Virus record (IMG/VR): IMGVR_UViG_3300017989_005036
Location: 1-64,000 of that record
Length of the DNA stretch: 64,000 nt
Origin: a virus
Reading direction: 5' to 3' (one strand)
Positions 1,169 through 1,315 of the stretch are shown in pieces. The position numbers and the translations under genes were made by a program. The notes beneath the pieces are model-generated. The model was not told the origin of the DNA and ran no database searches. It saw only the letters and a list, made by a program, of their open reading frames with translations. Position 1 is the first letter of the stretch, and every line of letters starts with the position of its first letter.

Positions 1169-1315
1169 GGGGGAGTGGTGAAACTCACTACTGCTTTACA
1201 ACCTTGGACAGGCAACTGTCCCATTCATGAAAAGCATACAAACGGCAAACACGACATCCTTGTAAAGATGTTGCCCGAAAGGGCATTGTAGGTTCAAATC
1301 CTACCTCCCCCACCA
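1169..1315 (+). tRNA. atypical class II tRNA (Tyr-like) with a 59-nt D-loop insertion and an 8-nt anticodon loop
   Basis: acceptor GGGGGAG/CTCCCCC plus ACCA; ACATC-CTTGTAAA-GATGT; V arm TGCCC-GAAA-GGGCA; T arm GTAGG-TTCAAAT-CCTAC. Confidence 0.75.

Follow-up and report, generated by a model that had tools for sequence, protein, structure and literature searches.

What should be made of a transfer RNA (tRNA) gene in which every stem is perfectly paired, and in which the D loop is interrupted by 59 nucleotides (nt) and the anticodon loop holds eight bases instead of seven? This question is raised by positions 1169-1315 of a stretch of viral DNA, the first 64 kb (hereafter the window) of the 75,420-base-pair (bp) IMG/VR virus record IMGVR_UViG_3300017989_005036. 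CheckV puts the completeness of this record at 15%, and therefore the genome at ~0.5 Mb; words of the stretch are found in seawater and sediment metagenomes from six studies (2018-2024), and the source is a giant, or huge, marine phage. We tentatively favour, with rather less than even confidence, the reading that the locus is a real tRNA-derived gene of this phage rather than a decayed remnant, encoding an intron-bearing tRNA that is spliced by proteins. As to the insert itself, the best explanation would be that it groups functionally with the small, non-self-splicing 'enigmatic' inserts of megaphage tRNAs.

Anatomy of the interrupted gene

The locus has the layout of a class II tRNA scaffold with 7+3+5+4+5 = 24 pairs, all of them Watson-Crick and none mismatched. 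Its parts are the following.

1169-1184, + strand: 5' exon, with the acceptor 5' strand (1169-1175), U8 and G9, D-stem GTG (1178-1180) and AAAC (1181-1184)
1185-1243, + strand: insert of 59 nt at D-loop position 16/17
1185-1191, + strand: 5' end of the insert, TCACTAC, predicted to form a 7-bp 'anti-D-arm' helix with tRNA nt 7-13 (1175-1181), closed by an AAC loop
1192-1236, + strand: insert arm, with P1 TGCTTT (1192-1197)/AAAGCA (1231-1236), an internal loop and P2 GGACAG-GCAA-CTGTCC (1206-1221)
1244-1315, + strand: 3' exon, with D loop GGCAAA, D-stem CAC, anticodon arm, variable arm, T arm, acceptor 3' strand, A73 and CCA
1169-1175/1305-1311, + strand: acceptor stem, 7 bp
1178-1180/1250-1252, + strand: D stem, 3 bp
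1254-1258/1267-1271, + strand: anticodon stem, 5 bp
1259-1266, + strand: anticodon loop, 8 nt, CTTGTAAA
1273-1284, + strand: variable arm, GCCC-GAAA-GGGC
1288-1304, + strand: T arm, with the consensus T loop TTCAAAT
1312 and 1313-1315, + strand: A73 and the encoded CCA; tRNA-Phe begins at 1317

U8, A14, G18G19, the TTCAAAT T loop, A73 and CCA are all present. The initial annotation of this DNA, made from its letters alone, had described perfect acceptor, T and variable arms and an encoded CCA, and both its coordinates and its pairs hold. CCA is not encoded in the other tRNA genes that were read (two Tyr, Phe and Leu-CAG), and the neighbouring, working tRNA-Tyr genes, unlike the interrupted one, carry mismatches or G-U pairs.

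Rfam recognises the locus as a tRNA (RF00005) at 36.4 bits against a gathering threshold of 29, aligning 1169-1312 to the full model (1-71) with 65 nt of the D loop looped out. ARAGORN makes no call on the intact 1169-1315 and misses the gene; after removal of 1185-1243 in silico it reports a flawless 88-nt cloverleaf, labelled tRNA-?(Thr|Tyr)(tgta). Every cloverleaf element (7-bp acceptor, D arm, 5-bp anticodon and T stems, T loop) is thus found, the D arm only when 1185-1243 is removed or looped out, in agreement with the earlier claim that this segment interrupts the D loop. The restored D loop, AAACGGCAAA, had been thought similar to its neighbours, and is in fact letter for letter that of tRNA-Leu(CAG) at 2661 and tRNA-Leu(TAG) at 8153. 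This identity indicates that the 59 nt are a discrete insertion between C16 and G18, at a site in the length-variable part of the D loop where position 16/17 is solvent-exposed. In this strain AAAC stands as a 4-nt direct repeat at both insert borders, which can slide 4 nt to the left. A related strain carries 1184 C>A, which falls in the AAC loop of the competing helix and turns the first AAAC into AAAA; the direct repeat, part of the original description, therefore holds for this strain and is not strictly conserved.

The insert, the D arm and the case for excision

Folded alone, the insert forms P1, the internal loop and P2 with z = -3.5, and 0 of 200 shuffles are as stable, which bears out the two helices first proposed (TGCTTT/AAAGCA and GGACAG-GCAA-CTGTCC). 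Upstream of this arm, the insert begins with seven nucleotides, UCACUAC, that are fully complementary to GUGGUGA, tRNA nt 7-13. In the ensemble computed with the insert, the pairs of this anti-D helix reach probabilities of 0.72-0.999 and those of the D stem ~0, and a forced cloverleaf lies 5.6 kcal/mol above the best fold; with the insert removed, the canonical cloverleaf is the minimum-energy fold. Taken at face value, these secondary-structure energies, which leave tertiary contacts out, would mean that the unspliced RNA is not a tRNA. With the D arm disabled by the insert, either the insert is excised for decoding, or the RNA has another role, or the gene is off.

Excision is the option that we tentatively prefer, and it would run as follows. 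The 5' end of the insert would pair with tRNA nt 7-13 and block the D arm for as long as the insert stays, and the RNA would become a tRNA only upon protein-mediated excision. A putative endonuclease would cut at or near both junctions, a phage kinase/phosphatase would heal the ends, and an Rnl2-type ligase would seal the exons. The product would be an 88-nt tRNA with the loop CUUGUAAA, charged with Tyr or Leu, which might read UAC/UAU poorly, or UAC-A as four bases. Both junctions lie directly after AAAC in this strain, which fits a sequence-guided cut, and equally a DNA-level insertion with a 4-bp duplication. Putative healing and sealing genes are present in the window, together with another member of a tRNA repair set:

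18107-18871, - strand: Rnl2-type RNA ligase (PF09414), a possible exon sealer
32985-33920, - strand: kinase (AAA_33) and HAD phosphatase in a T4 Pnkp-like arrangement, a possible end healer
21254-22000, - strand: Thg1-like 3'-5' nucleotidyl transferase (PF04446 and PF14413)

The idea of a non-canonical intron, one of the options raised at the outset, gains in part from these ligase and kinase/phosphatase genes, from the predicted loss of the D arm before splicing, and from similar inserts in Lak phages. The tRNA genes of Lak megaphages, one of them for tRNA-Tyr(GTA), contain small introns that are conserved and of unexplained mechanism (Devoto et al. 2019, PMC6784885). Like these 'enigmatic' introns, the present insert is small and not self-splicing, sits in a tRNA gene of a ~0.5-Mb phage, belongs to no Rfam class and is conserved in related genomes, in this case in two strains. 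The Lak introns, however, were called with tRNAscan in eukaryote mode at the anticodon-loop position, whereas the present insert lies in the D loop between C16 and G18, pairs with tRNA nt 7-13 and accompanies an 8-nt anticodon loop. Lineage and habitat differ as well, this phage being marine and its EF-Tu closest to that of Planctomycetota. In the literature searched, no description of a D-loop insert in a bacterial or phage tRNA was found.

Other intron classes resemble the insert less. Archaeal non-canonical tRNA introns are short, are cut by EndA at a bulge-helix-bulge (BHB), and may also interrupt parts of the tRNA other than the anticodon loop, the D arm among them; in size, in protein-based splicing and in this possible location they are comparable to the phage insert. 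The phage junctions, however, accommodate neither a BHB nor a relaxed hBH motif, no EndA-type gene was found (no search was aimed at one), and the host is bacterial. On inspection, the UCAC... that follows the 5' junction cannot pair with the start of the 3' exon (AAACGGCA), and the 5' junction falls in a triloop, so that an archaeal-type intron was rejected. Group I introns interrupt bacterial and phage tRNA genes too, but they are longer than 200 nt, self-splicing and located in the anticodon loop; the 59-nt insert gives no RF00028 match in Rfam at E <= 10. The statement in the initial annotation that known bacterial tRNA introns are mostly much larger and self-splicing is right. One group I intron of this kind was observed in the tRNA array of a 436-kb phage contig (L074:1329-1559, Rfam 76.6 bits; contigs used for comparison carry L numbers).

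That the insert is itself a small ribozyme (hammerhead, hepatitis delta virus (HDV)-like/theta, twister, hairpin etc.) or a degenerate group I intron, making the RNA self-cleaving or self-splicing, seems to us very improbable. Searched with Rfam 15, positions 800-1500 give no match to any family of ribozymes or introns, even at E <= 10; this covers the small self-cleaving classes hammerhead, HDV-like/theta, twister, pistol, hatchet and hairpin. Moreover, 59 nt is far under the size of a group I or group II intron, and by inspection the order of helices is unlike the HDV double pseudoknot or the hammerhead three-way junction. What speaks for a ribozyme is the compact, well-folded insert, the group I intron in the related array just mentioned, and the occurrence of small HDV-like 'theta' ribozymes beside phage tRNAs (bioRxiv 10.1101/2023.06.13.544163).

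An eight-base anticodon loop on a scaffold of mixed resemblance

If the insert were excised, what would the product read? The anticodon loop counts 8 nt in place of the 7 nt of a tRNA and reads as a four-base anticodon, UGUA; ARAGORN likewise gives tgta, in line with the GUA anticodon plus one extra base that was first noticed. The loop CUUGUAAA equals the standard bacterial tRNA-Tyr loop CUGUAAA plus one U or, alternatively, the tRNA-Thr loop CUUGUAA plus one A. Loops of this size are rare, as ARAGORN flags 2 of ~741 tRNAs across the compared loci, both in L225. This tandem pair, on the minus strand of a 212-kb viral contig (5061-5228 of its reverse complement), consists of adjacent tRNA genes with encoded CCA and 8-nt loops (tttg, gaaa).

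An expanded 8-nt loop is also what quadruplet and +1 suppressor tRNAs possess (sufD, sufJ and SufB2; qtRNA-Tyr, PMC9094753). In E. coli selections, a TACA-decoding tRNA-Tyr scaffold arose, and tyrosyl-tRNA synthetase (TyrRS) selectively charged a quadruplet-anticodon tRNA-Tyr (PMC9094753); this precedent makes the 88-nt product chemically plausible. With the codon taken from that work, the phage loop CU-UGUA-AA would match the loop expected of a TACA-decoding tRNA-Tyr. Those suppressors, however, are mutants or laboratory constructs with proven decoding, whereas the phage gene carries a D-loop insert, and neither a quadruplet site nor avoidance of TAC-A was found in the phage genes. The yeast mitochondrial tRNA-Thr(UAG) (PMC7609411) is, like the phage tRNA, natural and endowed with an enlarged 8-nt anticodon loop, with which it still decodes triplets; unlike the phage tRNA, it is organellar, tied to the CUN-to-Thr reassignment and without an insert. 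A more ambitious version of the splicing reading, in which a phage protein-based route removes the structured D-loop insert and thereby frees a UACA reader on a Tyr/Leu-type scaffold, the insert being a lock on a risky tRNA, is in our estimation a long shot.

The scaffold itself is of mixed resemblance. Once spliced in silico, it matches tRNA-Leu genes best: those of related loci, at 74% over 69 nt, and, within the window, tRNA-Leu(CAA) at 7565-7648, with which it has G4-G7/CTCC, U8 G9, the D stem GTG/CAC, G26 and TTCAAAT in common. The acceptor, anticodon and T stems differ from this paralog by paired, compensating changes in which every pair is kept, and this indicates a long history of selection for tRNA shape. 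The 3' half, from the variable arm to CCA, is 76-78% like the tRNA-Tyr of Edwardsiella and Erwinia jumbo phages. Of the features of a bacterial tRNA-Tyr, A73, the long arm and GUA are present, in a loop of 8 nt. The Tyr identity considered at first is less secure than it was taken to be: a likeness to tRNA-Tyr is seen only in the 3' half, and the 5' half and the T loop are closest to tRNA-Leu(CAA).

Persistence, rival explanations and genomic surroundings

Misassembly does not explain the locus: across four studies, five runs contain at least 99% of the words sampled from 900-3400, and one further run has a 151-nt unitig that covers 1166-1316 with zero differences. Contigs of the related strain differ by ~3% over 991-3310 and have a 28-nt deletion in the spacer just upstream, with the whole locus kept. 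The differences listed within the locus, the above 1184 C>A and 1213 C>T, both fall in loops, the latter changing the GCAA tetraloop into GTAA. In the tRNA-Tyr gene at 1027-1109, a compensatory stem change separates the strains (1056 A>G with 1066 T>C), so a comparison of this kind can show constraint, given enough change. Conservation of the interrupted gene is seen in two strains of one species-level lineage.

These strain data bear directly on the idea of a recently dead gene, that is, a redundant tRNA paralog inactivated by an insertion through AAAC microhomology or a 4-bp duplication, or by the one-base loop expansion, with its stems still undamaged. We consider this possible, although on the unlikely side. 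Both lesions are older than the ~3% split of the strains, and in neither lineage is any of the 48 stem positions damaged; the 24 stem pairs hold 0 mismatches, and the tertiary-contact bases are all kept. Since substitutions far outnumber indels (~10x in general mutation spectra, as assumed here), a large insertion and a loop indel with zero stem damage are unlikely under neutral decay, which would be expected to strike the stems well before another rare lesion of this kind. Probably, therefore, one or both of the oddities were compatible with function. The dead-gene explanation does account for the presence, in one gene, of two changes that would each be expected to disable decoding, right behind two intact tRNA-Tyr genes, and for the predicted misfolding of the unspliced RNA. 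It would likewise fit the 4-nt direct repeat at the borders, the first copy of which, however, is AAAA in the other strain.

Mobile DNA is active in the record, as seen from a live IS605 with both TnpA and TnpB. This complete IS200/IS605-type element (19161-20818) adjoins the RNA ligase gene and has its right-end hairpin at ~20795-20830:

19161-19568, - strand: TnpA of the IS605 element
19649-20818, + strand: TnpB of the IS605 element

The insert, by contrast, is single-copy in the 75 kb of the record, has no terminal inverted repeats and resembles neither the resident IS605 ends nor anything in the searched collections, which argues against such an inactivation; an IS200/IS605-derived mini element (PATE) or a miniature inverted-repeat transposable element (MITE) was rejected on the same grounds. 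A match to 'CAAACGGCAAA' at 6136 lies within a coding frame and is due to chance.

Several further points weigh against the spliced tRNA that we prefer. We know of no mechanism by which bacteria or phages remove a D-loop insert and of no candidate endonuclease, and this one is too small for self-splicing and has no BHB motif. The ligase and kinase/phosphatase genes are permissive rather than splicing-specific, because they form a common phage repair set, and losing the interrupted copy would be cheap, because two intact tRNA-Tyr genes adjoin it. In the 86 long open reading frames (ORFs), TAC before A is not avoided: 141 of the 313 TAC codons precede an A (45%), compared with 41-47% for CAC, AAC, GAC and TTC. 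Nor does any gene in the 75 kb (~15% of the genome) need a shift at TACA. The quadruplet reader first suggested thus keeps its laboratory precedent in the TACA-decoding tRNA-Tyr, but finds no support in the coding sequences, and the lack of avoidance is also in keeping with a dead gene. Two candidate TACA +1 junctions (24379, + strand; 43060, - strand) were rejected, one being on the non-coding strand of real genes and the other an ordinary ORF overlap. The base next to a codon is strongly biased throughout the coding genes, A following ~45% of NNC codons and ~15% of NNT codons.

Selection on the locus is not proven by the strain comparison either, as its change rate, 2/147, is not clearly below that of the spacers (~3%, events counted), and the 1213 change says nothing on selection, because the N of a GNRA loop takes any base. 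Beyond strain level, no homologue was found in IMG/VR, GenBank phages or GTDB genomes. The 16-mer core of the insert gave 18 matches in IMG/VR, all by chance and with unrelated flanks, the anticodon-arm 18-mer gave 0 matches, and an insert 20-mer had one chance match among GTDB genomes, in a coding region of Actinomycetota. When GenBank phages were searched by blastn with the 147 nt, only the 3' exon aligned, to ordinary tRNA-Ser, tRNA-Tyr and tRNA-Asn genes. IMG/VR relatives identified by EF-Tu (<=70-72% identical) hold no ortholog of the interrupted gene. Closer EF-Tu relatives exist (75-92% identical, P0003-P0016; 75-99% with P0002 counted in, on contigs of up to 693 kb), and a scan of one metagenome by EF-Tu was swamped with bacterial EF-Tu. 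The match to the 642-kb phage LR756502 was to tRNA-Phe only. Among the sequencing runs with words of the stretch, no RNA dataset is listed. Finally, an IMG/VR pattern scan for the same D-loop design returned one other case, L386:2926-3071, in which 49 nt interrupt the D loop at the equivalent site, between the copies of an 8-nt direct repeat (GGCGAAAT), and the anticodon domain is non-canonical. ARAGORN makes no tRNA call on this gene even with the insert removed, and it looks more like insertion damage, which favours the dead-gene explanation.

We are more doubtful that the RNA stays unspliced as a non-decoding, 147-nt tRNA-like molecule. Such an RNA might be a decoy, which was also among the first suggestions, or a sponge for a host nuclease directed at tRNA-Tyr; it might give a phage protein a handle, or help to process or regulate the tRNA-EF-Tu operon. 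The acceptor/T minihelix and CCA are intact, so that RNase P and end-recognising enzymes could act, and the off-size Tyr-like loop and blocked D arm would exclude the RNA from the ribosome; yet no partner protein or target has been identified, and the insert at position 17 between perfect D-arm halves suggests an interrupted rather than a redesigned tRNA. TAC-A is not avoided in the phage genes, as expected of an RNA that does not decode. Phage tRNAs are reported to counter tRNA-targeting defences, among them a retron effector that degrades tRNA-Tyr (PMC11555353, PMC10264068). Arrays of related phages do hold many over-long tRNA-like genes that plainly retain extra domains, but the present insert matches no conserved module of other phages, and its conservation is confined to one species-level lineage.

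These over-long genes are of several designs. Tandem tRNA-like genes of 108-147 nt, missed by ARAGORN and differing in their anticodon loops, lie at L064:627-2018, L074:2489-3365 and L079:645-1320. They have in common a conserved ~53-nt module in the variable region. Its P1 stem covaries (A-U/G-C) and leads to a 5x5 internal loop, in which CCUCG is invariant, and to a capped hairpin; YUACAAGC comes next, before the T arm. The module has no Rfam match, and a covariance model built from 11 copies (R1) finds 12 copies, in these three contigs only. Given its shared layout and YACAAGC-like tail, the insert was considered as a copy of this giant-variable-arm module, and rejected, as R1 has no match at 1185-1243 (E <= 10, filters off). 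Two adjacent tRNA genes at L071:6308-6578 share a ~57-nt structured insert between the D and anticodon arms, at position 26, in which a GUUCGC-GCAA-GCGAGC hairpin lies within a covarying outer stem. At EF-Tu-syntenic phage loci (L009:513-626; L013:7416-7552; L033:854-957; L029:6882-6978), 30-80 nt of structured RNA replace or extend the anticodon domain of over-long tRNA-like genes, with two GCAA-capped hairpins in L013. Deleting segments in silico from 70 over-long tRNA-like genes and rescanning with ARAGORN was too permissive for placing inserts.

The interrupted gene lies in a tRNA-EF-Tu operon, amid an array of 11 tRNA genes called by ARAGORN in 916-8225, which are all + strand genes, serve Tyr, Phe, Leu and Ser alone and flank the phage EF-Tu gene. 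Its nearest neighbours are:

916-997 and 1027-1109, + strand: two ordinary tRNA-Tyr(GUA) genes, directly upstream
1317-1392, + strand: tRNA-Phe, directly downstream, in the same orientation
1416-2615, + strand: phage EF-Tu, downstream, in the same orientation

With the EF-Tu of Planctomycetota this phage protein shares 72-73% identity, a likeness in sequence that hints at the host phylum; with that of other huge-phage contigs in which the tRNA-EF-Tu layout is kept, it shares 54-70%. Under translation table 11, 90% of the window is already coding and reassignments of TAG, TGA or TAA add little; there is therefore no sign of stop-codon recoding, which was rejected as a context for the locus. A promoter and terminator scan of 700-3400 gave counts not above those of shuffled sequence, and RNase P RNA is not listed in the window by Rfam at gathering thresholds.

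Within and around the array, several other features were observed. Upstream of these Phe/Ser/Leu/Tyr tRNA genes, at 353-487, lies a 24-codon ORF whose codons 3-16 read F S F S S S L L Y L Y S L S, drawn from these four amino acids alone. Behind it come a strong hairpin and a T run, an arrangement that resembles a leader-peptide attenuator. The spacer just before the interrupted tRNA (1113-1165) is filled by a perfect inverted repeat of 16 bp (AGACAACCAAAAAAGG / CCTTTTTTGGTTGTCT), which is not conserved, as 28 nt of it are missing in the related strain. The genes with Leu anticodons UAA, UAG and CAG (3001-3074, 8153-8225 and 2661-2739, respectively) are only 73-79 nt long, and the former two have 5-nt variable loops, without the long arm of an ordinary bacterial tRNA-Leu. 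Long-armed tRNA-Leu(GAG, CAA) genes are present beside them, and L002 and similar relatives show the same mix. A small ORF at 2776-2991 has a Cys pair on either side of an in-frame TAG (CKFICDYC ... TAG ... SCDNSDC); it could be read through or represent two short ORFs, and no suppressor tRNA for this TAG was seen in the window.

What the locus means for huge phages depends on which explanation applies. Even a decoy or a dead gene would show that these phages hold tRNA-like genes which escape the standard tRNA finders. A product that decodes would be one of the rare tRNAs in nature to have a four-base anticodon, and would matter to work on recoding and on engineering the genetic code. If the insert is excised, it would offer a second and mechanistically informative example for the unexplained introns of megaphage tRNAs, by virtue of its AAAC junctions and D-arm block, and it would point to a tRNA splicing pathway in bacteria or their phages that is neither self-splicing nor archaeal or eukaryal in type, acting at a new position.

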